From an uncultured Lentisphaeraceae bacterium (GTDB lineage: Bacteria > Verrucomicrobiota > Kiritimatiellia > RFP12 > DVOR01): DNA of 64,000 bases. The stretch covers positions 3,638-67,637 of the forward strand of contig CAYZIC010000001.1 in assembly GCA_964478335.1 (NCBI GenBank), in the 5' to 3' direction. The number at the start of each line of letters is the position of its first letter. Positions within the stretch are counted from its first letter, which is position 1. Made by a program: the position numbers and the translations under genes. Positions 8,648 through 26,590 of the stretch are shown here, one piece after another. Under the pieces are notes generated by a model. The model was not told the origin of the DNA, searched no databases, and saw only the letters and a list, made by a program, of their open reading frames with translations.

Positions 8648-8824
8648 AGCGAGAGGCGAATCACCGTTTTGAGGTGGGGCTGCTCCGAAGATGGCCAGCC
8701 AGAGGGACGTGGGAGGGCTGATGTGGATGGCCGGGTGCAGTGGTACCAAACGCCACGTAAGTAAATAAACCATTGATTAAATAGGCAGCGGCATATAATA
8801 TCCACAAAAACAATAAAGTTCGCT

Positions 8825-8852
8825 TGACATTTTTTGTCTAATTTGCTATAGT
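8825..8852 (+). promoter_or_regulatory. sigma70-like promoter (TTGACA, 16 bp spacer, TATAGT) for the tRNA
   Basis: Near-consensus -35 and -10 hexamers lie 15-40 nt upstream of the tRNA 5' end. Confidence 0.5.
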
Positions 8853-8866: not shown

Positions 8867-8942
8867 GCCGGTTTAGCTCAGTTGGTAGAGCAGCTGATTT
8901 GTAATCAGCAGGTCGTGGGTTCAAGTCCCTCTGCCGGCTCCA
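8867..8942 (+). tRNA. tRNA-Thr (anticodon UGU), CCA encoded
   Basis: The sequence folds by hand into a cloverleaf: acceptor GCCGGTT/GCCGGC, T-arm GGTTCAAGTCC, anticodon loop TTTGTAA. Confidence 0.9.
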
Positions 8943-8950
8943 GTTTATAT

Positions 8951-8990
8951 CCCTCATAGGTCAATGACTTATGGGGGATTTTTTTGCGCC
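8951..8990 (+). terminator. rho-independent terminator after the tRNA
   Basis: An 8-bp stem (CCCTCATA/TATGGGGG) with a 12-nt loop is followed by ATTTTTTTG. Confidence 0.5.
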
Positions 8991-9639
8991 TTGGTGGTGG
9001 GGCAATTTGACGAAATTGGTGCGTTTTGACGCTGAAAACGGCTATTTAGCCCCGTATGTCTCTTGTTCTACTTTAATGACTAAGCGGCGCAATCGCTAGG
9101 ATTTGGGGTTTGGGATTTGGGGAGACTGTTGCATCCACTCCCCGCCTCTGCGTTATACCTGATTACGACTTGGTGCCATGAGGAGGCTCTGCCTCCAGGA
9201 AGAGTCGCTACGCTCCTACTTTTTCTACTTCCGATCCTCTATAATCGTACAAGAACCGAAAATCAGGCTTGAGAGATTACCTAAGGGGCGAGTCAAAGGT
9301 CAGCAGACTCTCAAATCGAGGGTAAGGCAAGGTTTATTTGCGTCCCTAAAGGAGGCTGCGTCATCTAGTTCGAGTCTAGATTGCGAGTGCGAGTGATGAG
9401 GACTTGCCTCATGCTCCGCTTATTTACCCACGCCCTGCTTATTGAGCCCCATACCCCGCTAGCGGTCTGCGACGGAGCGGCTACGCCTCTAGATTGTGGG
9501 ATTTGGGATTCAGTCACTGATAGCGGCCTGTGGCCTTAGAGGCTCCCGCAGGTCGCTTGTGGAGGATTCCCCAATCTCCAAATTCTAAACCCTACCCCCC
9601 GTAGAGATGACCTTGGTCCTCGCCACGACAGTTGCGATA

Positions 9640-9685
9640 CTCCAACCTTTTATACTTCCGACCAATTAAAATTAAACAAGAGTCG
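9640..9685 (+). mobile_element. solo ISL3-family terminal inverted repeat remnant (copy 1 of 4)
   Basis: The motif CCAATTAAAATTAAACAAGAG is shared with three copies at 33.6-34.3 kb. Its outward end reads GGCTCTTG on the reverse complement, the ISL3 IR terminus. Confidence 0.45.
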
Positions 9686-9976
9686 AAAAGGTTCAAGAAA
9701 TATGCCCAAAAGTTACACTTCCCAACTTTTACACTGGGTCTATGGTTCATTTTAAGCGTTCAAGAATGCGTTATCTCATTGATAAAACGCGTCCACCCTT
9801 CTAATTATTAAGTTTCCTTATCTTTTTCCTTGCGTTTTTGTTTAACTGTGATAACATACGCCTCGTTTTTGAGATTCTTTCTGGATTGATCAAATAGCAA
9901 GGCCTGATTTGGCTGAGTCTAGGCGTATTTTTCGTTTGTCGCTATCATCAAAATCTCATCACAAATAAGGATTGTT

Positions 9977-11410
9977 ATGTATACACAGTTTGAGTTTCCA
10001 ACCGACCGCACTGGCTTATTGTCCAAACTAACAGAGCGTAGTGCAATGCCTCACGGAGACATGATGTCGATGATGATGTCTAAGCAAGAAGTCGACACAC
10101 AGGGGGTGTGGTGCAAGACGCAGCCTAGCTCAAATGGGATGATGCTTTATATCCATATTCCTTTTTGTGTGAGTCGGTGTGCATTTTGTGGATTTTATGC
10201 GCATAGCACGTCCGATGAGAGTCGCTTGGCTTATATTGATCTCTTGATCAAGGAGCTCCAGCAGGAGGCCGATCGTGGTGTCTACACGGCTCGTCCGATT
10301 GATGTGGTTTACTTTGGTGGTGGCACGCCGACGACGTTGTCAGGGGATGAGTTTCGCCGGTTGATCGGCTTTATCTACACGCACTTTACTATTGCATCAG
10401 ATGTGGAATTCACTGTTGAGGGGAGGATCTTTGGCTTTGATGATGATCAGGTGCGTGCATGCGTGGAGTCTGGTGCGACACGATTCTCTTTTGGTATTCA
10501 AACGTTTGACACAGTGCTTCGTCAGAGCTTGGGTCGTCGTAATTCTCGTGAGGAGCTGATATCACGCTTGCATCGCATCAAGGATATCTGTGGCGACAAG
10601 GTGGCGCTCGTAGCGGATCTCATCTATGGTTTACCAGGTCAGACACAATCGGATTGGATGGAAAACCTGCGCACGGTGCGTGACGATGTGCCGCTTGATG
10701 GGGTGGATCTCTATCGCTTGAAACTTTTCCCTGGCTTGCCGATAACCAAGCGAATGGAGCGTGAGGGAGCTTGGTCTGAAGAGGAGCTGATCTTGCGTCA
10801 TAGTGAGGCATGTGACTATCTGCAGGGCGCCAATTGGCGACAGCTCTCCTGCACCCACTGGGGGCGCAATTCACTTGAGCGCAATCGTTACAATCAGTGG
10901 GCTAAGACAGATATCGACCTCATCCCCTTTGGCTGTGGAGCAGGTGGTGCAATTGGCGAGAGCTCTTTTATGCAGACGAGCAACATCGACAAGTATAAGG
11001 AGATGGTCAATGCAGGTCTTAAGCCTTTGCAGATGGTGATGCCTAAGATGCCCTATCATGCGCAAAAGGCTCGCGTCGTGGATCAAATGGAGCGCGGCTA
11101 CTTTGTGCCCTCGACCAGTCCTGATGTCGACTTTGCGCCGCTATTTGACAATTGGCAAGCTGCGGGGCTGTGCACGGCTGATGGTGATGATCGATTTCGA
11201 TTGACTCGGTTGGGTGAATGCTATCAAGTGAAGCTCTCCTCAATGCTGACGGGTTATATTTTTGCTGGTGCAGCTGGGATGGGGGGAGTAGGTAGCATGA
11301 TGGGTATAGGGGGTAAGACACCCGACAGCCCAGCAACACAGGGCAAGGGCTTGATGGAGCTCTTTGCACAGATGGCATCTGGTAAAGAAACGCCCAAGAT
11401 GGGAGAGTAG
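9977..11410 (+). CDS. HemN/HemW/ChuW-family radical SAM enzyme (oxygen-independent coproporphyrinogen oxidase-like)
   Basis: The CxxxCxxC radical-SAM motif (HIPFCVSRCAFCGFY) and the GGGTP motif are present, with a HemN_C-like C-terminal domain. An N-terminal Met-rich extension is also present. Confidence 0.8.
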   Translation: MYTQFEFPTDRTGLLSKLTERSAMPHGDMMSMMMSKQEVDTQGVWCKTQPSSNGMMLYIHIPFCVSRCAFCGFYAHSTSDESRLAYIDLLIKELQQEADRGVYTARPIDVVYFGGGTPTTLSGDEFRRLIGFIYTHFTIASDVEFTVEGRIFGFDDDQVRACVESGATRFSFGIQTFDTVLRQSLGRRNSREELISRLHRIKDICGDKVALVADLIYGLPGQTQSDWMENLRTVRDDVPLDGVDLYRLKLFPGLPITKRMEREGAWSEEELILRHSEACDYLQGANWRQLSCTHWGRNSLERNRYNQWAKTDIDLIPFGCGAGGAIGESSFMQTSNIDKYKEMVNAGLKPLQMVMPKMPYHAQKARVVDQMERGYFVPSTSPDVDFAPLFDNWQAAGLCTADGDDRFRLTRLGECYQVKLSSMLTGYIFAGAAGMGGVGSMMGIGGKTPDSPATQGKGLMELFAQMASGKETPKMGE

Positions 11411-11414
11411 GCTT

Positions 11415-11966
11415 ATGCAGGATCGACCCTTTTATTGGCAAACAGAAGAGCTCATCGTGATTGGGCTTTTTACCGCACTGAGCAAGGTGTCGTCTCTAAT
11501 TATTTCCTTGCTGGGAGGAGGGCCAAATCCCATTACTTTGATGCTTAAGAATGGTATCGCCACGGCACTTTTGATTGTGATGGTGGCGCGAGTCTGTAAG
11601 TTTGGCACATTGGCTCTGTATACGCTCGTGGGTCAGATGATCACCTTTTTGATTGCGGGGGGCTCGTTGATTAGCCTTTTGCCAGGCTTTCTCTTGGGTG
11701 CGATCATCAGCGATGGTCTGATTGCAATCATGGGAGGCTACACCAAGATGCGAGCTGTGGTCTGTGGGGTACTCTTTTACGACTTGTTTGGTCGCATGCT
11801 ATCGCTCTCTTTCTCCTATTTGACGGTGCGTGAAAATCCTGCGCTCTTTATCTTTGGGGCGGCCGTGGTGCTTTTGGGTTATTTAGGGTGTCTCTTTATT
11901 GGTGTGCCCTGTGGTGTTAAGTTTGTAAAGGAGCTCCGCCATGCCGGAATTATTCGAGAGATTTAA
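11415..11966 (+). CDS. ECF-transporter substrate-specific (S) component-like membrane protein
   Basis: 183 aa with about 5-6 TM helices. It starts 5 nt after the upstream stop and overlaps the T component. Confidence 0.5.
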   Translation: MQDRPFYWQTEELIVIGLFTALSKVSSLIISLLGGGPNPITLMLKNGIATALLIVMVARVCKFGTLALYTLVGQMITFLIAGGSLISLLPGFLLGAIISDGLIAIMGGYTKMRAVVCGVLFYDLFGRMLSLSFSYLTVRENPALFIFGAAVVLLGYLGCLFIGVPCGVKFVKELRHAGIIREI

Positions 11967-12834
11967 CTCAAATAGACAGCCTACGAGCGATCGCTTTGAC
12001 ATCCGCACGCGCATCTTGATCTCGTTGATTGTTGCAGCGACAGGGATTTACTTAAGTGCGACAGGACCGCTACTTGTGATGGTTGTAGCGACTTCACTCT
12101 ATGTCCTTGCGACACGTCGATATAAGGTCATTTTCATGACTTATGTGGGCATTACTTGTATGATTGCAGTCTCGATGGCAATTATTTTAATCTCATTTAA
12201 ATTGGCTGAGATAGCCTTTGATGGTACGCCAACTGCGCAGACTGTGGCGATCTTTAAGCAGGTGCTAGTAGACAACTATCATACGCCATTTATTCGTATG
12301 ATTCCCTCGGTTAACGTGATGCTTGCTATTAGCTTAAACTTCCAAGTACAACGTTTTGTTAATGCGATGAAGAGCGTCCGCTTTCCGCGAGTAATCTTTT
12401 TGCCGTTGACAGTATTTTGTCGCTTTATCCCCGAATTTGTCTTAAATATCCGTCAATTGCGCGATGCGGTGATGATGCGAGGGTTTGCGCTAACGATCCA
12501 ATTTGCCGTGCTCCACCCTATTCAGACACTGCGCTTGACAGCGATCCCTTTGTCGATGCGCACACTGCGCATGGCTGACAATCTGGCCATGGCAGCTGAG
12601 ATGAAGCGTATTGGCTACACCCGCCAACCCACGCATTATAATGAATTATACTTCAGCAAGTTTGATTTTGGCATGCTTGCTTTGACGCTGATCATCGCCA
12701 CCAGTGCGATACTCTGGCAAAACACCTATCCCAAGGGTGTCGGTTATGGACCTGGAGGTATGATGTCGATGAAACCGCCCGTAGCAGCACAGCAGACGCC
12801 TGAAGCCACTCCCAAGACTGGAGAAAATCAATGA
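11941..12834 (+). CDS. ecfT: ECF transporter transmembrane (T) component, CbiQ/EcfT family
   Basis: A polytopic membrane protein with the C-terminal EcfT signature AVMMRGFAL (AxxxRG). It overlaps the ATPase gene start. Confidence 0.65.
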   Translation: MPELFERFNSNRQPTSDRFDIRTRILISLIVAATGIYLSATGPLLVMVVATSLYVLATRRYKVIFMTYVGITCMIAVSMAIILISFKLAEIAFDGTPTAQTVAIFKQVLVDNYHTPFIRMIPSVNVMLAISLNFQVQRFVNAMKSVRFPRVIFLPLTVFCRFIPEFVLNIRQLRDAVMMRGFALTIQFAVLHPIQTLRLTAIPLSMRTLRMADNLAMAAEMKRIGYTRQPTHYNELYFSKFDFGMLALTLIIATSAILWQNTYPKGVGYGPGGMMSMKPPVAAQQTPEATPKTGENQ

Positions 12835-14315
12835 GCACTGTCAACGAGGCCCCCAAGATGTCCCATATCGATACTGCGACTACGTCGATAGATGCGGTGT
12901 GTGCAAAGCATCTGGGGTACAACTATCCCTTTCAATCAGAGCCAGCATTGTACGATCTAAGCTTTTCGCTGCGCCGTGGCGAAGCGATGCTGATTACAGG
13001 CCCCAGTGGATGTGGCAAAACAACGCTCTTGCGAATCCTTAATGGGCTTATCCCTAACCATTTTAAGGGTACGGTCACTGGTGAGCTAACCGTCGCTGGG
13101 ATGACCTATCCAACGCCCTTGGCAGAGGTCTCTGAGCACGTAGGCACAGTCTTGCAGAATCCAGATGAGCAATTCATGGCGACGACCATCGAGGAAGAGG
13201 TCGCACTCGCACTCGAGTGGCAATGCGTCTCTCATGATGTCATGCATCAGCGTGTTGGAGAAGCGTTGCGAATCCTCAACCTCTCTGACATTGCTACGCG
13301 CTCGGTCTTTAACCTCTCCCAAGGCGAAAAGCAAAAGTGCATCATCGCATCAGTCATCGCCGCCTCTGCTGATATCGTCGTGATGGATGAGCCTACCGCC
13401 AATCTCTCGCCTGATGCTACGGTATCTCTTGCAGAGATTTGCCTCGCCCTTAAGCAACGTGGTGTGACGCTGGTCATTGTCGATCACCGGCTCTATTGGC
13501 TCCGTGGGATTCTTGACAAGCTACTCGTGCTCTCAGAGGGGCGACAAGTCTACTATGCGGATCGCACCGATGGCATCGATCCGCTCGATCGACTCAATGG
13601 CTGTGGCGCACTTGCTCAGTGGGGGTTACGCCGCACCGATGTCAAGCGGCTCTCTTTCCCCGCTTGCTCTGAGGCGCAAGCCTTTGCGATTGATGTCACA
13701 GGTTTAACCTTTACCTATCCACGTGGCGACACCATTTTTAACAACTTTAGCACCCATATCCCAAGTGGCGCAGTAACTGCGATTGTCGGCGAAAATGGTG
13801 CTGGTAAGACTACCTTTGCCAGACTCCTCTGTGGACTCAACAAGGTCAAGACTGGGGCTATCCTCTTTAAGGGAGAAAAGCTCACCCCAAAGGTAAACCG
13901 CATGCGAACCGCCTTTGTCATGCAGCAGATGGAAGTCCAGCTCTACATGCGCACCGTCTGTGAAGAGCTCACGCACTCAGCCACTCACAAAAGTGCCGAT
14001 GATGATCGTGATGCGCGAGTTGCCCATTGGATGGACGTTTTTCAAATTGCCCACCTCGCCCAGAGGCATCCTCACTCCTTATCGGGAGGCGAAAAGCAAC
14101 GCCTCGTCATCGCCTGTGCCTTGATGAAACAACCTGAGCTCCTCATCTTGGACGAACCGACCAGTGGACTAGATGGACGCAATATGCACATTATTGCAGA
14201 CCAATTAAAAGCATTTTCTCAAGCAGGAGGCGCGATCCTCCTTATCACACACGACCTTGAGCTCCTCGAGCTCATCGCTGATTATCAACTCGTTATCGAA
14301 GGAAAGCACAAATGA
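12831..14315 (+). CDS. ecfA: ECF/ABC transporter ATPase with fused duplicated A domains (EcfA1-EcfA2)
   Basis: Two Walker A sites (GPSGCGKTT, GENGAGKTT) and two ABC signatures (LSQGEKQ, LSGGEKQR) are present. Its start overlaps the T-component stop. Confidence 0.85.
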   Translation: MSTVNEAPKMSHIDTATTSIDAVCAKHLGYNYPFQSEPALYDLSFSLRRGEAMLITGPSGCGKTTLLRILNGLIPNHFKGTVTGELTVAGMTYPTPLAEVSEHVGTVLQNPDEQFMATTIEEEVALALEWQCVSHDVMHQRVGEALRILNLSDIATRSVFNLSQGEKQKCIIASVIAASADIVVMDEPTANLSPDATVSLAEICLALKQRGVTLVIVDHRLYWLRGILDKLLVLSEGRQVYYADRTDGIDPLDRLNGCGALAQWGLRRTDVKRLSFPACSEAQAFAIDVTGLTFTYPRGDTIFNNFSTHIPSGAVTAIVGENGAGKTTFARLLCGLNKVKTGAILFKGEKLTPKVNRMRTAFVMQQMEVQLYMRTVCEELTHSATHKSADDDRDARVAHWMDVFQIAHLAQRHPHSLSGGEKQRLVIACALMKQPELLILDEPTSGLDGRNMHIIADQLKAFSQAGGAILLITHDLELLELIADYQLVIEGKHK

Positions 14316-14812
14316 AAGCCGCAATCGTATGTTCCTCTAAGACCGGCAACACGATGAAAGTCGCCCAAGCCATCCACGCCGCCATGCCCGCTGGTACCGA
14401 TCTCTTTGCTGTCGAAGAAGCCGCTGCTGCTGATGGCTATGATCTCATCGTCATGGGTTTTTGGGTCGATCGCGGTATGCCCGACGAAAAGGCCAAGCAG
14501 TACATGAAGACCATCGTAGGTAAAAAGGTCTTTACCTTTTTTACCCTCGGAGCAGACCCTGACTCAAATCACGCAAAGGAGTGCATGGCGAAGTGTTGCG
14601 AATTTTATGGTGCAGACTGCTCCGAAATCGGCAACTTCCTCTGCCAGGGTGCCATTGACCCTAAACTCATCGAGGTGATGAAAAAAATGACCGATGGTCC
14701 TCATGCGCCCACTCCTGAGAGCTTGGCTCGCTGGGCGCGCGCTGCATCTCACCCAAATACTGCAGACTATGAGGCGGCCGCGGCTGCTATCTCTGCCGCT
14801 TTAGCCAACTAA
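14312..14812 (+). CDS. short-chain flavodoxin
   Basis: The N-terminal FMN phosphate loop SSKTGNT is present. The protein is 166 aa and its ATGA overlaps the ATPase stop. Confidence 0.75.
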   Translation: MKAAIVCSSKTGNTMKVAQAIHAAMPAGTDLFAVEEAAAADGYDLIVMGFWVDRGMPDEKAKQYMKTIVGKKVFTFFTLGADPDSNHAKECMAKCCEFYGADCSEIGNFLCQGAIDPKLIEVMKKMTDGPHAPTPESLARWARAASHPNTADYEAAAAAISAALAN

Positions 14813-14911: not shown

Positions 14912-16012
14912 ATGAGTATAAGTAAAAAATCTGGTTTCACGTTGGTGGAACTCCTCGTGGTCGTGGCAATCATCGCCGTTATTGGTGCTGGCGTCGCTGT
15001 GACCTATCAACGCCTTGATGACAAGGCCAAAACGTCCGTCGAAATCTCCGACGTCTCTATCCTCAAAAAGGTCATCAAGCACTGGAGCGCAATCAATGAT
15101 TACAAGTTGGTCAACGAGATGGACTCTTTGATCGATAGTCAAGGCAATCTCTACACTGCTGGGGACTTCGAAGGTATGGGTGGTTCAGTTGCCAATAAAT
15201 ATGGCAAAGGCTTAAATGGTCCCTTTGGTGCGACGCTCATGGTTGAGCAGGCGCCAGATGAGATCGTCGAGACCTTGGCTACCAGTGGCATGACCCTCAC
15301 TTATAAGCACATCGCTGATGCGACTGATGCGAATGACTCAACGTGGGAAGCCAATATGATGGGCGGTGGTGTTGATGTCAAGAATACCCGCTGCACGCTC
15401 GTCGGTAAAGACGCATTGGTAGACGCTAATGCTCTCGTGGACGCAGGTAAGAAGACCGCTGACGATTTCGTTAATGGTGCCATTACCATCAATAAAAAAG
15501 AGTACAAAACTCTTGACGCGTGGCAAAAGGCCTACAGCGATGCCGAGAAGATTACAGATTCCAACCCTGTTGACAAGCTCGCATTCATCTATCCCGGTGG
15601 CGGTGCTTCGATGGCTATGGGACCTAACACAATCACAATGCCGATGAACTTGACCGATGAAATCATTAGCAACTGTGGGTTCGATCCTGAAGACATTGTC
15701 AAACCCGGCGAAGAAGCTAGCAAGCCGACGGCTAAGTACTACTTGATCGCAATGGGTCTGGGACGTTTTAGCTCGATCTATAGCGGTAAGTCAATTCGCG
15801 CAGATGCGCCTGCTTATGGCAAGCGTCAAGTGCAGAACGCTGGTGCTTACAACCGCTATGTTGCTGTAATCCGTATCCCTGTCGGTGGCTACAACTCGAT
15901 GACGGGGGCAGGTGAACCCGCCCAAGTGATCGACGTTTTGACGCCTCAGGGTTACTCCGTGGCTGCTCTCCGCGACAACTTGGTTAAGGACGAGGACAAG
16001 ATCCGCGACTAG
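14912..16012 (+). CDS. prepilin-type N-terminal cleavage/methylation domain protein (long pilin/pseudopilin)
   Basis: A class III signal KKSG|FTLVELLVVVAIIAVIGAG with Glu at +5 is present. An AAGGAAA RBS precedes the start. Confidence 0.8.
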   Translation: MSISKKSGFTLVELLVVVAIIAVIGAGVAVTYQRLDDKAKTSVEISDVSILKKVIKHWSAINDYKLVNEMDSLIDSQGNLYTAGDFEGMGGSVANKYGKGLNGPFGATLMVEQAPDEIVETLATSGMTLTYKHIADATDANDSTWEANMMGGGVDVKNTRCTLVGKDALVDANALVDAGKKTADDFVNGAITINKKEYKTLDAWQKAYSDAEKITDSNPVDKLAFIYPGGGASMAMGPNTITMPMNLTDEIISNCGFDPEDIVKPGEEASKPTAKYYLIAMGLGRFSSIYSGKSIRADAPAYGKRQVQNAGAYNRYVAVIRIPVGGYNSMTGAGEPAQVIDVLTPQGYSVAALRDNLVKDEDKIRD

Positions 16013-16082
16013 TACTGATACACGATGCCCAGAGTCACCATCTGGTGTCTCTGGGGCATTTCTTTTAAATAAGGATTAACTG

Positions 16083-16589
16083 ATGAAAGCTGCAATTATA
16101 TGTTCTTCTAAAACGGGCAATACGATGAAGATCGCCCAGGCGATTCAAGCCGCCATGCCCGAGGGCACGCCCCTCTTCCCCATTGCCGAAGCACCAGACC
16201 CGGCTGCATATGATTTCATCATCATGGGATTCTGGATAGATAAGGCTGCGCCTGACCGCAAGGCAAAGGCCTACATGAAGACGCTCACAGACAAAAAGGT
16301 CTTCACCTACTTTACCCTCGGCGCAGTGCCGCATGGTGACCATGCACAACGCTGTTTACGTAATAGCACCAAAGCGTATGGTAAGGGCTGCACCGAGGTG
16401 GGCACCTTCCATTGTCAGGGAGCCATTGATCCTAAGTTGATCAAGATCATGCGGTGGCTATTCCCCTTTGGCCCTCACGCCAATACCGAAAAGAATCGTG
16501 CACGGTGGGCTGAGGCTGCCAAGCACCCAAATCAAGATGACTGCTCTGCTGCGGTAGAGGCTATCAAGCACGTTTTACAGGCACTCTAA
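16083..16589 (+). CDS. short-chain flavodoxin, paralog of 14312-14812
   Basis: About 60% identical to the first flavodoxin, with the same SSKTGNT loop. Confidence 0.75.
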   Translation: MKAAIICSSKTGNTMKIAQAIQAAMPEGTPLFPIAEAPDPAAYDFIIMGFWIDKAAPDRKAKAYMKTLTDKKVFTYFTLGAVPHGDHAQRCLRNSTKAYGKGCTEVGTFHCQGAIDPKLIKIMRWLFPFGPHANTEKNRARWAEAAKHPNQDDCSAAVEAIKHVLQAL

Positions 16590-16623
16590 GCACAGTTGCG
16601 TAAATGAGTGGGAAAGGCTTTAG

Positions 16624-17442
16624 ATGATGGAGCAATGTTACCGTTTAGGATTTACCTTGGTCGAGCTACTGGTCGTGATTGCGATTGTGGCGGTCATCGG
16701 GGCTGGGGTATCGGTCTACTATGGTCGTGACAATGTCGATCGTGGTAAACGAGAGATGACACGCCATGAGATGGGGCAAATCAGGCAGGCCTTTCAACAA
16801 TGCTATGCGGATAATAGCATTCAGCTCATGCGCGAGATCACAGAGCATGATTCATTAAAACCCTTGCCAACAACCTCTTTTATCAATACTTTTAAAGCTA
16901 AGCCAGATCAAACCAATCGCCTCTATGGGATGGTGAATTTTTTTGAAAGGTATGGTCTCTGGTGTCTCAAGCAACCTGCTATTCGAGATGTTGCCTCAGG
17001 GAGATTGATTACCTTTAAACCTTTTGATGCGATGGTAGGTACAGGCTGGCAGGGGCCTTATATCTCAATGAATGCTGGTGCGGCCTGCGTTGTGGATGGA
17101 GACAACTGGGTCAAGCCAGACCCTGACAAAACCACTGAAATCATCCTCCCACAAATTGCCACGCGCTATGAGGGGATTTATCGCATAGTCTACTTTGAGC
17201 ACTGTGAGGATGAGCGTGATACTAGCGAGCCCATTTACCGTCGTCTCTTGTTGGTCTGTGCGGTGAATGATGAGGCGATCGATACTGCTGATGAGTTGCG
17301 CAGCTATTCAGGTAATCGCCGCAAGGGCGATAATGCCTATCCGCTGAACCTCGACACGGGGGTGATTCGTACCTACGATGAGAGCAAGGGCCTTTTCTTT
17401 GTTGAGCTACTCAATCTTGATCAATGGAGGATACAGCAATGA
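16624..17442 (+). CDS. prepilin-type N-terminal domain protein (pseudopilin)
   Basis: RLG|FTLVELLVVIAIVAVIGAG is near-identical to the N-terminus of the 14912 gene. Confidence 0.75.
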   Translation: MMEQCYRLGFTLVELLVVIAIVAVIGAGVSVYYGRDNVDRGKREMTRHEMGQIRQAFQQCYADNSIQLMREITEHDSLKPLPTTSFINTFKAKPDQTNRLYGMVNFFERYGLWCLKQPAIRDVASGRLITFKPFDAMVGTGWQGPYISMNAGAACVVDGDNWVKPDPDKTTEIILPQIATRYEGIYRIVYFEHCEDERDTSEPIYRRLLLVCAVNDEAIDTADELRSYSGNRRKGDNAYPLNLDTGVIRTYDESKGLFFVELLNLDQWRIQQ

Positions 17443-18458
17443 TGCGCCCATGCATGGTTGGCCGTTCGGGGATGACGCTCGTTGAGCTCATGGTTGTCTT
17501 GGCAATCTTAGCTGCCGTGCTGACGACGGTTTCGGTTTCAACGATAGCCTCGCGAGACCGTCAGCGAGTCGAGAAGACTCAGCGTCAAGGGCGCGCGATG
17601 GTAGAGGCCCTGACGCGTACTGATGGGCTCTCTTTTATTTCCGACTTTGGTCGTCTCCCTCAGACGATTGACGAGGTCAAGTGGCTGTGCCAGCGGGCGA
17701 TCTTTAATAGCACATCGACGATACATGAAGCCCCCCTGTATCAACTCTTGCCGATCTGGCGTGCAAACACCGCCTCATCTACAGGAGCCGTATCACTAAA
17801 GACTTTTATTGGCAGCTCCAATTCCGTTAAGACAGCACTCGAGGCGGCACATTTGGGGGCGGGCTGGCGTGGACCATACACCTCTGCGGTGGTGCTACAG
17901 ACTGAAACAGAGGAGGACAAGACCGAGTCTCGTCTCTGTGATGCATTTGGCGGGGATTGGGTCTTTGAGGAGGGATCGGGCACGACTGATGCTCAGCTAA
18001 TTAGCTATGGCCGTGACCAGCTCAAAGACGACGCGGGTCAAGAGCGCAGCTGGCAAGATAGTGATCAGCGATTCGCCATACACCAAGCTCAAATCTCCCA
18101 GCAAGTTGAATTGGCTGTGTCACTCACCTGGGGTGAGGAGCAATTAGCATCTGCATCGATCTATTACTTTGAGCCAACCCTCATTGGTAAAAACACGTCC
18201 TATAGCATGGACATCCAGTGCCTTTATCATACGACTCAGACAAATCCAGCATCCTTTGTGATTAGCCCTGCGCAACCTGTGACCCTGAATGGGAATATCC
18301 CCAATCCATCAGACTCAAGTGGTTTGACAATTGGTCTGCGAGCGATTGTTGTCACTGCCACAGATACAAACAGCAACAAAGCGATCTCTGCGGTGCAGTA
18401 TGTGCATTTAAAGCCGGGCACCAACCACCTCGACATTTCCCTTTATCCACTAAAATAA
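17424..18458 (+). CDS. prepilin-type N-terminal domain protein (pseudopilin/minor pilin)
   Basis: SG|MTLVELMVVLAILAAV has the prepilin hydrophobic segment with E5. Confidence 0.7.
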   Translation: MEDTAMMRPCMVGRSGMTLVELMVVLAILAAVLTTVSVSTIASRDRQRVEKTQRQGRAMVEALTRTDGLSFISDFGRLPQTIDEVKWLCQRAIFNSTSTIHEAPLYQLLPIWRANTASSTGAVSLKTFIGSSNSVKTALEAAHLGAGWRGPYTSAVVLQTETEEDKTESRLCDAFGGDWVFEEGSGTTDAQLISYGRDQLKDDAGQERSWQDSDQRFAIHQAQISQQVELAVSLTWGEEQLASASIYYFEPTLIGKNTSYSMDIQCLYHTTQTNPASFVISPAQPVTLNGNIPNPSDSSGLTIGLRAIVVTATDTNSNKAISAVQYVHLKPGTNHLDISLYPLK

Positions 18459-18473
18459 GAAGAACATAAGACG

Positions 18474-19850
18474 ATGAAAAAGCCCAAACCCACCTACGCA
18501 CACACCCTCTTGACCTATGATGGCGAGCGGTGGTCTTATTATGCTGGCGCTACTCATGAGATGATCTTACGTCAATCGTTCATTGGTGCAGCCCAGGTCA
18601 TCCCTGCTGAAATCATCAGCGAATTACAGGCTGCTCATACGACGCATACGCGTTTATTGCTCGCTGGCGAGGTACATCGACTCGAAGTGGGATTGCCTAC
18701 GAATTTAAGCTTTAAAGAGGTTAATCGCATCATCACCTCAGAGCTGGCTGACATGACCAATGTTGATGTTGCAGAAATGATCACAGCAGGTGCCACGATC
18801 CCTTATCCTGGGGTTGCGGAACCAATCGTGCTGACGGCAGCATTTGTTAAGGATCGTATTACTGCGCTTCACCAACAGTTGATCGATGCGGGCGTATTGA
18901 TTACTGGGGTGGCATCTTTGGAAATGGCTTGTATGGCGACTTGGATGACACAATCCAAGCACACTGAGACGCTCTTGATCATGGGCCATACTCACGATCT
19001 GGTGATCCCCGGTAGGCGTCGAGGTGAAAACCCTGGGCCGACCTCTCTCTCTGGCGGTATGCGCTACCTCGAAATGGATGAGCTCGATTGGCTCAATAGA
19101 CTTCAGCGCGGCGTGCGATTTCTTGATAAACAGCAGCCTTGCTCAGTCTTATCATTGATGGTGCGCGAGGGGCCCACTGCGGTCATGCGTGCCGGGGGCT
19201 TCTCAGAGACGGTTACCATTGAGCGTGAGCCATTCTTGAATCGCGTCATCAATGAGGCCGCATTGGTTCGGGCCAATCTCAAGGGTGCGCTCTTACCAAT
19301 GGTCAATCCCTATGTCCCTCGTAAGCGCTTTAGCCATGCGTGGATTGTCGTGCCTACGCTCTTGCTCATGGCTTCTCCTTATCTCTACTGGGGTGTCAAT
19401 GTCCTCTATCGCAATCACCACGCTACTGAGTATCAGCAGGATGCGGCTCCCTATTTGCCTTTGGAGCAGGAGCTAAAGACGGCGCGTCAGGCTAAACAGT
19501 CGGCAACGTGGGCACTGCAACAAGAGCAGGCAAACTTTAATGCGCTGGTCAATCGACGGAAGCCCTTGGCTGCTTTTATCCATACGGCCTACTTCTTTTG
19601 CAAATTTGCTGGCGTGACGGTCTCGCTAGAGAAGATCGAGGAGCAGGATGGTAAGATCTTGGTCTCAGGGACGATGGGAGACCCGGAGGATAGACTGCGC
19701 ATAAACCAGTCGCTCAAATCGTTTACAAAAAAGTATGGTCTCGTCATTATCGAGAATAAGCTCTCAGACTCAATTGATGAAGAGGGCAACCCTGTTTCAC
19801 ACTTTGACTTAACTCTGTCATACCAAAATTTGAAGGATCCTGCCCAATGA
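18474..19850 (+). CDS. pilus assembly protein, PilM-like cytoplasmic domain fused to a PilN-like TM/coiled-coil region
   Basis: A cytoplasmic region of about 290 aa is followed by a single TM (AWIVVPTLLLMASPYLYWGV) and a coiled-coil periplasmic part. Its position ahead of PilO/PilB supports the call. Confidence 0.45.
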   Translation: MKKPKPTYAHTLLTYDGERWSYYAGATHEMILRQSFIGAAQVIPAEIISELQAAHTTHTRLLLAGEVHRLEVGLPTNLSFKEVNRIITSELADMTNVDVAEMITAGATIPYPGVAEPIVLTAAFVKDRITALHQQLIDAGVLITGVASLEMACMATWMTQSKHTETLLIMGHTHDLVIPGRRRGENPGPTSLSGGMRYLEMDELDWLNRLQRGVRFLDKQQPCSVLSLMVREGPTAVMRAGGFSETVTIEREPFLNRVINEAALVRANLKGALLPMVNPYVPRKRFSHAWIVVPTLLLMASPYLYWGVNVLYRNHHATEYQQDAAPYLPLEQELKTARQAKQSATWALQQEQANFNALVNRRKPLAAFIHTAYFFCKFAGVTVSLEKIEEQDGKILVSGTMGDPEDRLRINQSLKSFTKKYGLVIIENKLSDSIDEEGNPVSHFDLTLSYQNLKDPAQ

Positions 19851-20710
19851 ACCTCTCCCTCAAAAAGACTAATAGTTGGCACTGGCTCGCCATTGCATTG
19901 ATCCATGGTATTGCCTTTTCTTATTGTGGCTGGCGTGCTTGTCTCGACCGTGTCGAGACGCAATGCCTACCACAAATCGCCAAAGAAGAGCAACACTTGA
20001 TTCAATTAAAGGCTATGGACGCATTTGAGCCAGATCGTCTTGATCGTGAAACCAAGCGTCTTGAGCAGCAACTTGACACCTTGCAAAAACGCCTGGATCA
20101 GGCAGGCACCAAGCCTATCCCTCAGGGTAAAGATGCGGTCGTGGTGATCAAAAATAGCATCGATCAGGCATTGGGGCATCATCAGCTACAGGTGGCTAAG
20201 TGCAATTTAAGCCTCTCTCTCTCGACGCAAGATCTGTCACGTGAGGCCTCACCCAAGGCAATTCCGCAACCTCGACCAGTCCAGCAAAAAGTGCCTCGCC
20301 TCTCTCAGGAGGAATTTATCCTCTCCTATGATTTAGATAAGATGCTCGCATCGTATGAGCAAATCCCCGATAAGGCACTGCGTAAGCAAATGGTCCAGGA
20401 GGAGAAGCGGCGCTCGCATCGGATCTTGGCACAGCAGGCCAAACTGAGAGCGCAAGGTGTCACGATCAAAGCAAAAGCTAATCCAGCTCGGGTCGTACAA
20501 GCACCCGTGAAGCCGACCTTTAAGCCCAATCTGCCCTTTAAAACTGTAGAGATCAACTATGTCGTGCGGGGGGACTTTAGGCAGATGTTTCTCTTTCTCG
20601 TCAAGCAATCGTTTTTAAAGCAGTCCTACCACTTTAAGCAGATCCAGGTCGTGCAGTTCGATGATGGTGAGATGGGCATGGCATTTGTTTTACAGGTGAA
20701 TTATCTATGA
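19847..20710 (+). CDS. PilO-like bitopic pilus assembly protein
   Basis: An N-terminal TM and coiled coil are present. The gene overlaps its neighbours at both ends (operonic). Confidence 0.45.
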   Translation: MNLSLKKTNSWHWLAIALIHGIAFSYCGWRACLDRVETQCLPQIAKEEQHLIQLKAMDAFEPDRLDRETKRLEQQLDTLQKRLDQAGTKPIPQGKDAVVVIKNSIDQALGHHQLQVAKCNLSLSLSTQDLSREASPKAIPQPRPVQQKVPRLSQEEFILSYDLDKMLASYEQIPDKALRKQMVQEEKRRSHRILAQQAKLRAQGVTIKAKANPARVVQAPVKPTFKPNLPFKTVEINYVVRGDFRQMFLFLVKQSFLKQSYHFKQIQVVQFDDGEMGMAFVLQVNYL

Positions 20711-22203
20711 CACACCCAAACATGACACAGGTTGACTTACGTCGTATCGCCCCATCACAGGCGATCCTTGACCTCGTACCTGCCAAGGTGGCTCGCGGGC
20801 TCAATGTATTGCCGATTTATCTCGATGAGCAGATGCTGACAGTCTGCGTGGCTGACCGAGCGAACTATTCAATCCAAGAGAAAATCGAGCGAATCCTCCC
20901 ACAGTATAGTGTGCGCTTGGTCGAGCCGCTCGAGCCGCTCTCCTTACGAAAGGCTTTGCGGGATAACTATCCTGATGCACTGCTCAATGGAGAATTGGAT
21001 TTACCAGAAAATTTATTCTTTTACATCCTCAATCGAGCACTGACTCGTAATGTCTCAGATATCCATATCACGCCGACAGAATCAGGCGCTCGGGTGCGAT
21101 TGCGTCTTGATGGTAAGCTCCATGCCGATCGGGTGATCCCTGCAGAAACTGCCGCAGAGCTCTCCTCCTATGTCAAGGTCGCTGCAGGGCTAGATATTTC
21201 GGAGAAGCGTGTTCCTCAAGATGGCAATATCGATACGCGTATTGGTGGGCAGGAGGTCAGCTTGCGCGTGGCGACCGTGCCAACGATTTATGGAGAGCAT
21301 ATCACGCTGCGTATCCTCAGCCAAGCTGCTGAGGCACTATCGTTGGATTCACTAGAGAGCCTCGGGATGCATCGTAAGCAATTGGCACTTTTTACCGCAG
21401 CCTTGCAAGCACCTAATGGTGTGGTAATTATCTCAGGGCCGACAGGCTCAGGCAAGACGACGACGCTCTATGCTGCACTGCGCAAGCTAACTCAGTCTGA
21501 CACGCTCCATGTCATGAGCATCGAGGATCCAGTAGAGAAACCTGTCGCTGGGGTCACTCAGATTAAGATCGATAGCAAGCAAGATCGAGTAAGCTTTGAG
21601 GGTGCGCTGCGTAGTGTCTTGCGTCATGACCCAGATGTCGTCATGGTGGGTGAGGTGCGTGACGGGGAGACTGCTACGACGGCTTTGCGTAGTGCGCTTA
21701 CGGGGCATTTGGTTTTTACGACGCTGCACACCAATAATGCGCCTGGCATTTTGACACGATTGGTGGATTTGGGAGTACCTGCCTATTTAGTCGCAGCGAC
21801 CTTACGCTTGGCGATCGCTCAGCGACTATTGCGCAGACCCTGCCACGAATGCATGTCATGGGTGCTTGCTGATGAGGCGACTTGTCGGGTATGTGGATGG
21901 GACCCTACGCATCCTCCCAAAATCCCCAAGGTGCACGGCTGTGCCTATTGTGGTATGAAAGGCTACTCCGGGCGTACTGCCATCTATGAGATCTTGCCCA
22001 TTACCGATCAAGTCCGTAAGTTGCTTTTGTCTGGCAAAAGCGAAATGGAGATCTATCAGTATCTCCGTGGCCGCCAGCCTGAGTTAACTCTGATGGGTGA
22101 TGGACTAGCCAAAGTCATCGAGGGAGAAACGACGCTAGAGGAGCTGCGCTCGACCGTTTGTGAAGAGGGCGATTCACTCGATGAGAATAAGGATCTCTTA
22201 TGA
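20707..22203 (+). CDS. pilB: type IV pilus assembly ATPase (GspE/PilB family)
   Basis: Walker A GPTGSGKTTT is present. The Asp box, Walker B and His box pattern are present. A tetracysteine Zn motif CHEC...CRVC...CAYC is present. Confidence 0.85.
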   Translation: MTHPNMTQVDLRRIAPSQAILDLVPAKVARGLNVLPIYLDEQMLTVCVADRANYSIQEKIERILPQYSVRLVEPLEPLSLRKALRDNYPDALLNGELDLPENLFFYILNRALTRNVSDIHITPTESGARVRLRLDGKLHADRVIPAETAAELSSYVKVAAGLDISEKRVPQDGNIDTRIGGQEVSLRVATVPTIYGEHITLRILSQAAEALSLDSLESLGMHRKQLALFTAALQAPNGVVIISGPTGSGKTTTLYAALRKLTQSDTLHVMSIEDPVEKPVAGVTQIKIDSKQDRVSFEGALRSVLRHDPDVVMVGEVRDGETATTALRSALTGHLVFTTLHTNNAPGILTRLVDLGVPAYLVAATLRLAIAQRLLRRPCHECMSWVLADEATCRVCGWDPTHPPKIPKVHGCAYCGMKGYSGRTAIYEILPITDQVRKLLLSGKSEMEIYQYLRGRQPELTLMGDGLAKVIEGETTLEELRSTVCEEGDSLDENKDLL

Positions 22204-23444
22204 TTACGGATATGCCGACCTATAAGTATGTGGGAGTCAAGGCGAGTGCGAAGGTTTCGGGCACGCTTGCAGCGGAGAATGAATCGCACCTCAGAGGGCT
22301 TTTGCGAGAGCAGGGGATTCTCCTTATTTCGGCCAAGCAGATCAAAATCTCGGGTAAGGATACGCTTAAAGTGCGTGCGAAATGGGAGCGTCACATCTCG
22401 AATTTTTTTATCAAACAAACGGAAATCGAGCAGGCGATGTTGCAACTGGTCATCCTGCTCAAAGGGGACATCGCCATTGTTGAAGCGTTTGAGCAGGCGG
22501 CCCGATTGGCTAAGGGCTACATGGCATCTGCTCTTTTTGAGGTCGCCTTAAGTGTCAAGCAGGGGAGCTCGCTCTCTAAGGCGATTCGATTGGCTTTACC
22601 ACAACTCGGTGAGCTCTATCAGGGATTGATTGGTGTGGGTGAGGTCAATGGCTCGCTGCCTCAAATGTTTGCCTATTGCGTGAGGTTGATGCAACAAAAA
22701 CGCAAAATGCGCAATAGCATGATCCGCGCGATGACCTACCCTGCGATAGTCGTCTTGCTAGGGGCTGGGGTTGGTTATTATGTGAGCACTGTTTCAATTC
22801 CGCAGATTGCATCGGTGATGGGGGGCGAGTCCGATAAGCTCCCCCCTGTGACTCGGGCTCTACTTGATACCAGTGACTGGATTGCAGACAAAGGATATAT
22901 GCTCATTATCTATCCTTGCCTCGTGACGATCATCCTACTAGTGATACGACTATTTAAGCCATGTGCTTTGGTAATGGATCACCTATTCCTTTGGATTCCG
23001 ATTATTGGCAAAGCGTTATGCTTCGCAGAGAATGCTCTCTTTAATAAAACCATGGGAATCTTGATCCGCAGTGGGATCTCTGTGGTCGAGTCGCTCGATC
23101 TGATCGAGGCGACGCTGACGAATGCTTTTTACAAGACTCAAATCGATGGTATCAGACGAGCTGTCCGCGCAGGTAAGATGTTTTCCGACGGATTGGCTCA
23201 ATCGGCGTTGCAGCGACTCTCGCCACTAACCCCTGCGCTGGTGCAAGTCGGTGAAAGCTCGGGAAATATGGATGAGGGCTTACACTATGTCGGAGAGTAT
23301 TATGAGGATGCTCTAGAGCGCCGTCTTGATTTGATGGCTAAACTGATCGAGCCAACTCTCGTCGTCGTCGTCGGGGGGATGGTTGCCTTTGTCTATGTCG
23401 CATTTTTCATGGGCATGGCCGCAATGAATACCGCTACACTTTAA
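22200..23444 (+). CDS. pilC: type IV pilus platform protein (GspF/PilC family)
   Basis: 414 aa with two repeated GspF-type domains and 3 TM helices. It overlaps the pilB stop. Confidence 0.8.
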   Translation: MITDMPTYKYVGVKASAKVSGTLAAENESHLRGLLREQGILLISAKQIKISGKDTLKVRAKWERHISNFFIKQTEIEQAMLQLVILLKGDIAIVEAFEQAARLAKGYMASALFEVALSVKQGSSLSKAIRLALPQLGELYQGLIGVGEVNGSLPQMFAYCVRLMQQKRKMRNSMIRAMTYPAIVVLLGAGVGYYVSTVSIPQIASVMGGESDKLPPVTRALLDTSDWIADKGYMLIIYPCLVTIILLVIRLFKPCALVMDHLFLWIPIIGKALCFAENALFNKTMGILIRSGISVVESLDLIEATLTNAFYKTQIDGIRRAVRAGKMFSDGLAQSALQRLSPLTPALVQVGESSGNMDEGLHYVGEYYEDALERRLDLMAKLIEPTLVVVVGGMVAFVYVAFFMGMAAMNTATL

Positions 23445-23479
23445 CCTCGTATAATTGATTACTAAATAAGGAACCTATC

Positions 23480-24079
23480 ATGATATCTAAATACACGTCT
23501 CTTATCCTCTTAGGCATGGCAACGATGGTTGCTATACCCATGGATCTCTCGGCACAAGAGCCCTCCAAGCCCAAGGCGCCTGTAGCACAGGCTAGCGCAA
23601 AAGTCTCGCAAAAGAATAAACCTGAGCCAGTGCCATTAGTCCAGCCTCCTCAAACGTTGCTCGACGCAGAGGGCAACCCAGAGCTCGAGCTCATTAACCC
23701 ATTTGCTAAGGGGCGCTCTCGTGAGGTTGAAACCGATGGCTCTATGGGGAGATTGCAACGAACGACCCTAGGTGAAGTCTCCAATGATTTTGCCTTGCTG
23801 GCGATCGTCGTTCCTGAAGATGATACAGTTGAGCCGATGGCTCTGATCCGTCAAAATCAGGATGCAGGCCCTATTTTAGTCCGGCCTGGCGATCTCATCC
23901 GTACCCGTGAGCCTACTAAGCGAGGCAATAGATGGGGGCGGAGCAAGGAAGAATTGGCACGAGAAAAGCTTAAAGGCAACTTCACTTTTTACCTCTACAT
24001 CAAAAATATTTTACCGACACATCTCGAGGTTTATCATAATAAGAAAAACCCCAATGAGACAACCATCATCACCCTCTAA
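23480..24079 (+). CDS. PilP-like periplasmic pilus assembly protein
   Basis: A signal peptide is present. The gene lies immediately upstream of the secretin. Confidence 0.4.
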   Translation: MISKYTSLILLGMATMVAIPMDLSAQEPSKPKAPVAQASAKVSQKNKPEPVPLVQPPQTLLDAEGNPELELINPFAKGRSREVETDGSMGRLQRTTLGEVSNDFALLAIVVPEDDTVEPMALIRQNQDAGPILVRPGDLIRTREPTKRGNRWGRSKEELAREKLKGNFTFYLYIKNILPTHLEVYHNKKNPNETTIITL

Positions 24080-24110
24080 TTTAAAAGAACCAAAGAGAAA
24101 GTTACACATT

Positions 24111-25916: not shown

Positions 25917-26590
25917 TCGATGATGCTCCATGTTGTCACGTGCTCCCCACATTGCTCAAGCATACACTCATCATTGTCTGTGTGGGCATGATGAGCAGTG
26001 GGTGCGCACTAACGCAACCAACACCTCCAAAGACTGAGCATCCCCCACTGTCTGAGCAAGAGGCTCTCCAGCAGGCCATTACGCTCGTCGCAGAGGGGCT
26101 CCCCAAACAAGCTGTGCCACAATTACTTGCGATACGGGACAATACTCAAGATCCCGCCATCAAAGCCAGTGCAATTCAAACATGCGCAAAGGCTTTTGCT
26201 GCACAAGGTGATTTTAAATCAGCAATCAATGTCCTCAGTCCCTTGCCCCCCCTTGTCTTGCGTGAGGAGCAGGCAATCTCAAATGCGATGGCTGGTGAAT
26301 ATTACTTGCGCATGGGGGCTTACAAGCTCGCAATCCCGTGCATTGAGCGAGCACTCTACAATGAGCTCCCTAAAAAGCACACAGATTGGCGGGCTGCGGC
26401 TTTCTTCAATTATGGTAAGTGCGCCCTCTCGCTCAATATGCCACGACGTGCGCAGGCTCTCTTTAGTGAAGCGCAACTACAATTTAAACACCTCAATCAC
26501 CCGCAAGCGGTCATACTGTGCCAAACGCTCCTCACAACAATCGACCGTGCAATACTCCAACAAGAAAGCCCCCCCCCCCATGTCAAATAG
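25913..26590 (+). CDS. TPR-repeat lipoprotein, PilF/PilW-like pilotin
   Basis: A lipobox (MSSGC) and TPR-like helical repeats are present. The gene overlaps the secretin stop and the pilT start. Confidence 0.5.
   Translation: MIDDAPCCHVLPTLLKHTLIIVCVGMMSSGCALTQPTPPKTEHPPLSEQEALQQAITLVAEGLPKQAVPQLLAIRDNTQDPAIKASAIQTCAKAFAAQGDFKSAINVLSPLPPLVLREEQAISNAMAGEYYLRMGAYKLAIPCIERALYNELPKKHTDWRAAAFFNYGKCALSLNMPRRAQALFSEAQLQFKHLNHPQAVILCQTLLTTIDRAILQQESPPPHVK

Follow-up and report, generated by a model that had tools for sequence, protein, structure and literature searches.

What would a bacterium import through an energy-coupling factor (ECF) transporter whose genes lie directly between those of an enzyme of the radical S-adenosylmethionine (SAM) kind and a flavodoxin? 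The question is raised by a five-gene operon (positions 9977-14812) from an uncultured Lentisphaeraceae bacterium (GenBank assembly GCA_964478335.1, contig CAYZIC010000001.1), of which we analysed a stretch of 64,000 nucleotides (nt), referred to here as the window. From its gene content and the conservation of that content, the operon probably encodes an anaerobic heme-iron acquisition module, combining ECF-type heme import, opening of the porphyrin ring and reduction of the product, anaerobilin. The five genes are as follows.

9977-11410, + strand: radical SAM enzyme (ChuW/HutW/HmuW-type class C, putative anaerobilin synthase), 477 amino acids
11415-11966, + strand: ECF S component (narrow Trep_Strep/MptD subfamily; putative heme-binding subunit), 183 amino acids
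11941-12834, + strand: ECF T component (CbiQ/EcfT) with a Met-rich C-terminal tail, 297 amino acids
12831-14315, + strand: fused ECF A-A' ATPase, 494 amino acids
14312-14812, + strand: flavodoxin, HmuF/FldH-like (Flavodoxin_3), 166 amino acids

Organisation of the operon

An initial annotation of this DNA, made from the letters alone, had listed five open reading frames (ORFs) with radical SAM, S, T, A-A' and flavodoxin domains, and Pfam and NCBIfam searches find all of them on the + strand. It had also described all five genes as overlapping, which is true of three junctions out of four. Exact ATGA overlaps join T to A-A' (12831-12834) and A-A' to the flavodoxin (14312-14315), and S and T overlap by 26 nt, but the enzyme stop codon is separated from the S start by a 4-nt spacer, as read from the sequence. 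The S component starts at ATG 11415, which is preceded by a GGGAGAG ribosome-binding site; the mechanically called ORF opens at TTG 11364. Overlaps of start and stop codons are commonplace within operons, and the element that stands above chance is the gene combination, kept across the 72 loci described below, rather than the codon overlaps.

No terminator-like site was found within or directly after the operon, the nearest strong one lying 3' of a tRNA-Thr gene at 8867-8942. The riboswitch search of the upstream region with Rfam gave only a tRNA at the gathering threshold and nothing credible at E <=1 in 8940-10000. Single parts of the operon are already labelled by the NCBI pipeline, for example as "MptD family putative ECF transporter S component"; what is new is thus how the genes are linked in function, and not the genes themselves.

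A ChuW/HutW-type radical SAM enzyme

The enzyme had been assigned broadly to a HemN/HemW/ChuW family, within which profile hidden Markov models now separate the candidates. It scores 398.0 bits against TIGR04107, the ChuW/HutW equivalog (model positions 8-417 of 419; curated cut-off 400), compared with 150 bits for HemW, 139 for STM4012, 118 for HemZ and 116 for HemN among the other NCBIfam models. The Radical_SAM Pfam model matches at 75.8 bits, and the three cysteines of the CxxxCxxC cluster, C64, C68 and C71 (CVSRCAFC), are invariant in the enzyme alignment. By these profile scores, the enzyme is of the ChuW/HutW type and not a housekeeping HemN or HemW, with SAM-dependent conversion of heme to anaerobilin as its putative reaction.

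Its nearest relatives are unnamed Kiritimatiellae proteins with at most 62% identity, and identity to proteins named ChuW or HutW is 36-40%. Sequence matches in the PDB are confined to HemN (77 bits) and NocN (72 bits). Ten orthologues from ECF-linked loci were scored on TIGR04107, and the eight from other lineages reach 416-528 bits, above the cut-off of 400; the window enzyme belongs to a divergent branch from the Planctomycetes-Verrucomicrobia-Chlamydiae (PVC) group that lies just below it. In a neighbour-joining tree with midpoint rooting only, the ECF-linked enzymes fall on either side of the enterobacterial ChuW/HutW clade, which indicates that the ECF association spans the enzyme family.

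Nearly all ECF-linked ChuW-like enzymes (loci L004-L076 compared) carry a histidine motif (PHGDM, VHAGM, VHPGV; H-[AP/G]-G-[MLV]) about 40 residues before CxxxCxxC. It occupies residues ~24-36 of the window enzyme (10046-10084), and the aligned enterobacterial ChuW/HutW sequences have M-P-W-R-N in its place. This N-terminal motif might be a heme contact.

Met-rich MMSM motifs had also drawn attention in the initial annotation. The two strings concerned, DMMSMMMSK at the enzyme N-terminus and GGMMSMKPP at the C-terminus of the T component, are both present in the translations, but they are not conserved: the N-terminal run of the enzyme is restricted to the window genome and a few close relatives, and the Met-rich tail of the T component is absent from its homologues. 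MMSM was therefore rejected as a conserved signature, the general feature being the His motif ahead of the Cys cluster. A short Met/Lys/Pro-rich insertion also occurs in a HmuS protein encoded further downstream in the window, and Bacteroides HmuS carries a methionine-rich insertion (PMC12583661). We regard the Met-rich motifs as unexplained and not diagnostic.

An ECF transporter with a distinct S component

The S component matches Pfam PF09605 (Trep_Strep) at 31.5 bits (gathering score 28.7) and scores 30.1 bits on NCBIfam TIGR02185 (MptD), below its cut-off of 76.45. Among Pfam and NCBIfam models it has no match to the vitamin or metal S families (CbiM, NikM, BioY, ThiT and others), and its profile has no sequence match in the PDB. 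The initial annotation had stated that the adjacency would be coincidental if the S component proved to belong to a characterised vitamin family and the enzyme to be a housekeeping HemN/HemW; neither was seen.

An AlphaFold2 model of the S component has six helices and a predicted local distance difference test (pLDDT) score of 85.8. When the model was compared with the PDB in Foldseek, the top matches were the ECF S components 5edl (probability 1.00, template-modelling score 0.59) and ThiT 3rlb (0.99), with PanT and RibU; as modelled, the protein has the ECF S fold. A search of 1.84 billion cluster representatives with the S profile gave 133 matches, 93 of them at E <=1e-10, followed by a gap and then by weak full-length family members, whose names were uninformative. 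So small a set, with a gap after the first 93, marks the S component as a narrow, tight and separate subfamily. It resembles other Trep_Strep/MptD proteins (PF09605/TIGR02185) in length, in its six-helix membrane form and in a strongly basic C-terminal motif, KELRHAGIIRE.

The other two components are ordinary ECF parts by Pfam and NCBIfam, and with S they make up a dedicated (group I) ECF module. The T component matches PF02361 (CbiQ) at 47 bits, and the A-A' ATPase contains two ABC_tran (PF00005) domains and matches TIGR01166 (cbiO) at 256 bits (cut-off 211.8).

A flavodoxin of the HmuF/FldH type

The operon flavodoxin matches PF12641 (Flavodoxin_3) at 167.5 bits. Its best solved relative is FldH of Fusobacterium nucleatum (8G64; E 4.6e-14, residues 1-153), and His132 aligns with the FldH heme ligand, His134. 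This histidine is kept in 57 of the 61 sequences of the flavodoxin alignment. FldH and its paralogue HmuF, which bind both flavin mononucleotide (FMN) and heme, hand heme over to HmuW and act as anaerobilin reductases (PMC10404700). The sequence likeness points to a HmuF-type heme chaperone and anaerobilin reductase as a better reading than a generic reductant. Thus, of the dedicated flavodoxin reductant described earlier, the flavodoxin gene in the operon stands, and the generic role gives way to a HmuF/FldH-like one.

A paralogue lies close by.

16083-16589, + strand: second HmuF/FldH-like flavodoxin (PF12641, 150 bits)

It is 59% identical to the first, keeps the heme-ligand His and sits between the first and second genes of a run of pilin-like genes. 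The close relatives examined have a single flavodoxin copy, compared with two in the window. A BilS identity was considered for both flavodoxins and rejected (NF045594 at 101.7 and 83.4 bits, cut-off 155); no BilR-like gene was seen.

Conservation of the gene set across genomes

The S-component alignment was searched against one genome per species in 185,579 species, which yielded 72 loci. Their gene content was read by tblastn with the window proteins, and the denominators below are the loci whose flanks were long enough. S is followed by T and A in 55 of 55 loci with sufficient downstream sequence, a Flavodoxin_3 gene lies within the locus in 50 of 55, and a ChuW-like gene is found within 6 kb upstream in 45 of 50. 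The co-occurrence of the S component with a HemN-like gene, which the initial annotation had proposed as a check across genomes, is thereby borne out, with the ChuW family as the partner. A homologue at 61% identity was found in the identical five-gene order.

The loci come from Kiritimatiellota, Opitutales, Cloacimonadota, Desulfobacterota (Desulfovibrio, Mailhella, Desulfobacter, Desulfospira, Geobacter, Desulfarculus), Sutterellaceae (the cultured isolate Turicimonas muris YL45, Mesosutterella multiformis, Parasutterella muris), Succinatimonas and Oceanispirochaeta. A combination kept across several phyla together with heme-specific partners argues that the adjacency is not coincidental.

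Three loci, in Kiritimatiellales, Desulfovibrionaceae and Duodenibacillus genomes (L007, L040, L067), have S-T-A but lack a ChuW-like gene within the flanks examined and, by tblastn, a flavodoxin as well. The missing partners could be encoded elsewhere, or the transporter could have a different role in these genomes.

Heme-related neighbours and regulation in relatives

Accessory genes vary by lineage, and each is a recognised heme-acquisition gene, as the following loci show.

Turicimonas muris: enzyme, TonB-dependent receptor, S, T, AA', ChuX/HutX, flavodoxin, ExbB, ExbD, TonB
Candidatus Spyradosoma: receptor, flavodoxin, enzyme, S, T, AA', ExbB, ExbD, TonB
Desulfuromonas and Oceanispirochaeta: flavodoxin fused to a ChuX/HutX domain
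Cloacimonadota: two HmuY genes and a receptor ahead of the enzyme
Oceanispirochaeta: divergent ChaN heme-binding lipoprotein, receptor, TonB

No FecCD or binding-protein heme importer is present in three fully annotated loci. These three have a TonB-dependent receptor and the ECF transporter as their only inner-membrane importer, which leaves the ECF transporter as the candidate route for heme.

In ten loci from Sutterellaceae and Desulfovibrionaceae (L036-L038, L041, L043, L044, L054, L058, L059, L062), a Fur box that departs from the 19-bp consensus at 2-4 positions is found 27-117 nt upstream of the enzyme gene, and in none of 100 shuffles per locus was there as good a match.

Other sequences upstream of the operons were recorded. 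Kiritimatiellae relatives have a clear TTGACA-17-TAnnAT promoter, immediately preceded by an AT-rich element. In the window, the operon is preceded by a non-coding stretch of about 1 kb that contains a degenerate direct repeat of about 400 nt within 9078-9689; its copies at 9078-9117 and 9203-9262 are 70-72% identical to 9471-9510 and 9630-9689. The repeat includes GGGATTTGGG-type strings and has no Rfam match. The tRNA-Thr gene before it (anticodon TGT, 8867-8942) has a near-consensus promoter, TTGACA-17-TATAGT, at 8824-8852 and a strong terminator hairpin at 8949-8979.

Proposed function of the operon

The following sequence of steps is proposed. The S component would bind heme at the outer face of the cytoplasmic membrane, and the dedicated T component and fused A-A' ATPase would power its import, so that the ECF transporter would occupy the place of the binding-protein-dependent HmuTUV/ChuTUV importer in classical heme loci. 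In the cytoplasm, heme would be bound by the HmuF/FldH-like flavodoxin through His132 and passed to the ChuW/HutW-type radical SAM methyltransferase, which would methylate and open the porphyrin ring to give iron and anaerobilin. The FMN hydroquinone of the flavodoxin would then reduce the reactive anaerobilin. The idea of an import-and-transform unit for a tetrapyrrole-like substrate, put forward in the initial annotation, is upheld by the ChuW/HutW-type enzyme, the non-vitamin S component and the conserved combination.

Several observations weigh against this proposal. The window enzyme scores 2 bits under the ChuW/HutW cut-off, and its PVC-group relatives from Pontiella and Spyradosoma reach only 387 and 383. 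The S component clears the Trep_Strep threshold only marginally and falls under the MptD cut-off (30 versus 76), and the Trep_Strep/MptD family has no member of proven substrate. Roughly 10% of the S-component loci lack an enzyme gene within reach. The upstream region of the window operon has no Fur box, its best match carrying 7 mismatches. ChuW also takes metal-free porphyrins (PMC10114669), so the exact tetrapyrrole is not fixed. Finally, we infer all steps from homology and conserved gene context.

A probable second heme-iron route in the same array

Genes on the + strand run on from the operon to 33448 with gaps of at most 99 nt, so that the array spans 9977-33448, about 23.5 kb. Its last four genes are as follows.

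27707-28447, + strand: polytopic membrane protein (putative HmuT/U/V-like trio; Pfam, translation)
28440-29027, + strand: MotA/ExbB-like protein (putative HmuT/U/V-like trio; Pfam, translation)
29020-29364, + strand: DUF2149 protein (putative HmuT/U/V-like trio; Pfam, translation)
29327-33448, + strand: HmuS-type heme dechelatase (CobN/ChlH superfamily; PDB 9d26 match), 1373 amino acids

The protein from 29327-33448 had been taken for part of a CobN-like chelatase operon 15 kb downstream. A gene of the CobN/Mg-chelatase family does lie about 14.5 kb downstream, but its product is HmuS and not CobN, with 979 bits to HmuS (PDB 9d26) compared with 396 to ChlH and 329 to CobN. Hydrophobic helices are seen in its translation at both the N- and the C-terminus. 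The three genes before it resemble HmuT, HmuU and HmuV, roles that we take by analogy from the system described in PMC12583661. No HmuR receptor or HmuY hemophore gene is present in the window. A search for HmuS relatives in metagenome contigs confirmed no locus; it used single-sequence peptide patterns, which were too specific.

HmuS strips iron from heme and leaves protoporphyrin IX (PMC12583661). With the supposed CobN gene read as a HmuS dechelatase, HmuS and its HmuT/U/V-like partners would form a second, ring-sparing route to heme iron, and the presence of HmuS in the same array strengthens the heme reading of the operon.

A type IV pilus-like block between the heme operon and the HmuS genes

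Between the heme operon and the HmuS genes sits a pilus-like block (14912-27644), interrupted only by the second flavodoxin gene described above.

14912-16012, + strand: large pilin-like protein pil1, 366 amino acids, N-terminal methylation motif; directly after the flavodoxin in both gene orders (see below)
16624-17442 and 17424-18458, + strand: two pilin-like genes (PF07963), syntenic in relatives
18474-19850 and 19847-20710, + strand: two conserved genes of unknown family, no Pfam/NCBIfam match, syntenic in Kiritimatiellae loci (tblastn)
20707-22203, + strand: GspE/PilB-type assembly ATPase (T2SSE 370 bits)
22200-23444, + strand: GspF/PilC platform protein (T2SSF 146 bits)
from 23480, + strand: 199-amino-acid protein of unknown family
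23907-25916 (ORF), + strand: secretin (PF00263 117 bits; GspD-like 160 bits, under the cut-off)
25913-26590, + strand: tetratricopeptide repeat (TPR) protein
26127-27644 (ORF; homologous part from ~26600), + strand: PilT/PilU-family retraction ATPase (TIGR01420)

The PilT-family ATPase matches TIGR01420 at 402.8 bits (cut-off 319.1) over ORF residues 159-498. Its presence beside T2SSE, T2SSF, Secretin and N_methyl domains places the block with type IV pili rather than type II secretion; none of the block proteins reaches the NCBIfam equivalog cut-offs for GspE, PilB, GspF or GspD.

Among Kiritimatiellae, block and heme genes stay together in two permuted orders. The first, enzyme-S-T-A-flavodoxin-pilins...PilT, is seen in the window and in eight further loci (L001, L010, L013, L016-L018, L076, L079). 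The second runs flavodoxin-small ORF-pilins...PilT-enzyme-S-T-A, its first half being seen in L078 and L080 and its second half in L008, L011, L014 and L015. The heme flavodoxin heads the pilin genes in both. In two metagenomic gene calls among the pil1 homologues (P0238, P0241), flavodoxin and large pilin even share one ORF of about 570 amino acids. Their prepilin leader is internal, and they are thus probably read-through or lost-stop artefacts, though flavodoxin and pilin still abut tightly. In the tblastn survey, no TonB-dependent receptor match was found in loci with the pil1 block, whereas most other lineages have one; Pontiella, a marine member of the same phylum, has a receptor and ExbBD instead of the block.

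This arrangement suggests that the pilus-like machine supplies the outer-membrane step in Kiritimatiellae. We tentatively extend the heme-iron proposal in this direction, while holding the extension to be doubtful: in gut and rumen Kiritimatiellae, a retractile pilus-like machine could replace the TonB-dependent receptor and ExbBD-TonB in acquiring heme or hemoproteins, and so feed both the ECF-ChuW and the HmuS routes. The proposed machine would comprise three large pilin-like proteins, the PilB/GspE-type ATPase, the PilC/GspF platform, the secretin and the PilT retraction ATPase. If this is true, pilus retraction through a secretin would serve, in analogy to DNA uptake, to bring in a small cofactor, and could reveal a new principle of outer-membrane uptake.

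It may well be, however, that the block is an ordinary pilus operon that adjoins the heme genes by chance and has no part in heme acquisition, an explanation that bears on the extension only. Pilin-like genes are very numerous in PVC bacteria, and all synteny between block and heme genes comes from one class, Kiritimatiellae. The pil1 model is confident, but it shows no likeness to a known fold past the pilin helix, and no heme-binding fold matches its structure; the family of large pilins is a small one (147 proteins). A chance neighbour is harder to reconcile with the two permuted orders, both headed by the heme flavodoxin, with the read-through flavodoxin-pilin gene calls and with the missing receptor match in loci that carry the block.

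Alternative readings of the operon

For the operon itself, the alternative that survives best keeps the same machinery and changes the substrate: a metal-free porphyrin, a chlorophyll-derived compound, a cobalt or nickel porphyrinoid or a corrinoid, handled for salvage or detoxification. It would fit with the in vitro activity of ChuW and HutW on several metal-free porphyrins (PMC10114669), with the lack of a recognisable Fur box at the window operon and with an S-component family in which no ligand is proven. We nevertheless consider it improbable. The accessory genes of the relatives are heme-specific (ChuX/HutX, HmuY, ChaN and a HmuF/FldH-type flavodoxin that keeps the heme-ligand His), many relatives carry Fur boxes, a HmuS heme dechelatase lies in the same array, and no cobalamin riboswitch or other Rfam element was found upstream.

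A second alternative separates the transporter from the enzyme, with the ECF system importing a metal (copper or iron) or dealing with the reaction product. It would draw on the Met-rich MMSM-type stretches at the enzyme N- and C-termini, in the T-component tail and in the HmuS insertion. In other proteins, motifs of this kind bind Cu(I). Homologues, however, do not keep the Met runs, ECF transporters are importers with no known exporter among them, and in the three annotated loci with a TonB-dependent receptor the ECF system is the only inner-membrane importer; this alternative is very unlikely.

Coincidental adjacency of a housekeeping HemN/HemW, an ECF transporter for vitamins or metals and a flavodoxin of general use could appeal to the JGI (Joint Genome Institute) names of several homologues ('oxygen-independent coproporphyrinogen-3 oxidase') and to the match of the ATPase to 'cobalt' CbiO models, but is effectively refuted by co-occurrence across several phyla with heme-specific partners, by the model scores (HemN 116 and HemW 150 versus 398 bits for ChuW/HutW) and by an S component without a match to any vitamin or metal S family, and we give it hardly any credence.

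Other features of the window

Beyond the array, three regions were noted. After a 960-nt gap past HmuS, 34409-36651 encodes two proteins, one with an F5/8 type C (discoidin) domain and one with a zinc-finger motif of the DnaJ type (CXXCXGXG). On the - strand, 37180-38412 and 38402-41237 hold the gene for the [FeFe]-hydrogenase maturase HydF adjoining the tripartite ATP-independent periplasmic (TRAP) transporter genes DctM and DctP; the presence of HydF is consistent with a strict anaerobe. A prophage-like region occupies ~51000-64000 on the - strand, with a lambda-family portal (62243-63898), a ClpP-like prohead protease (61062-62243) and many ORFs without a family match.

Significance and comparison with known systems

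The anaerobic breakdown of heme by ChuW, HutW and HmuW is known from work on a few pathogens, always together with a classical HmuTUV/ChuTUV importer. ECF heme importers, in turn, are known only from three Firmicutes, and the window locus would extend ECF heme transport to diderms. The conserved loci indicate that many diderm anaerobes of gut, rumen and sediment, in Desulfovibrionaceae, Mailhella, Sutterellaceae, Opitutales, Cloacimonadota and Kiritimatiellae, use ECF heme import tied to a ChuW-type enzyme and a HmuF-type flavodoxin. The reading gives one subfamily of the orphan Trep_Strep/MptD S components a substrate that can be tested, and culturable carriers exist in Turicimonas muris YL45, Parasutterella muris and Mesosutterella multiformis. 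Heme being a contested iron source in the gut, the proposed module would bear on iron competition within the microbiome.

The initial annotation held that an ECF transporter had not been described as the uptake route for such a pathway. This stands for the ECF-ChuW coupling in diderms, of which we found no description, but not for heme import by ECF transporters as such, which is known from Firmicutes: LhaSTA of Staphylococcus lugdunensis (PMC7299338), Lsa1836-1840 of Lactobacillus sakei (10.1101/864751) and, as cited in PMC7299338, SiaFGH of Streptococcus pyogenes. A literature search covering open-access papers found none that treats an ECF transporter together with ChuW, HutW or HmuW, an absence that is not proof, and ECF heme transport goes unmentioned in a 2025 review of bacterial heme.

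With LhaSTA, Lsa1836-1840 and SiaFGH the window operon has in common an ECF transporter of its own for which heme import, to supply iron or cofactor, is proposed or has been shown. Those three belong to monoderms, stand in Isd, Shr or transcobalamin-like contexts and have no radical SAM heme-degrading enzyme. The S components of these known systems have little sequence similarity to one another.

Another close parallel is hmuTRUVWF of F. nucleatum (PMC10404700), likewise an anaerobic heme-iron locus with a ChuW-family enzyme beside a HmuF/FldH-type flavodoxin that has the heme-ligand His. Its importer is a binding-protein-dependent type II ATP-binding cassette (ABC) transporter, HmuTUV, whereas an ECF system (S, T, fused A-A') is found here. 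Most relatives of the window operon have a TonB-dependent receptor, as F. nucleatum does, whereas the window locus has none and carries the pilus-like machine. The chu locus of E. coli O157:H7 and hutWXZ of Vibrio cholerae encode enzymes of the same family (TIGR04107 being the best model), and their ChuX/HutX partners recur in many ECF-linked loci; they use a ChuTUV importer, and ChuY or HutZ rather than a HmuF-type flavodoxin.

Finally, in hmuYRSTUV of Bacteroidota (PMC12583661; 9d26) the HmuS gene is accompanied by HmuT, HmuU and HmuV, just as the HmuS-like gene of the window is adjoined by genes for a membrane protein, an ExbB-like protein and a DUF2149 protein. The window differs in its order, T-U-V-S, in the absence of HmuR and HmuY, and in that its HmuS shares an array with a ChuW-type module, which would place two heme-iron routes side by side.

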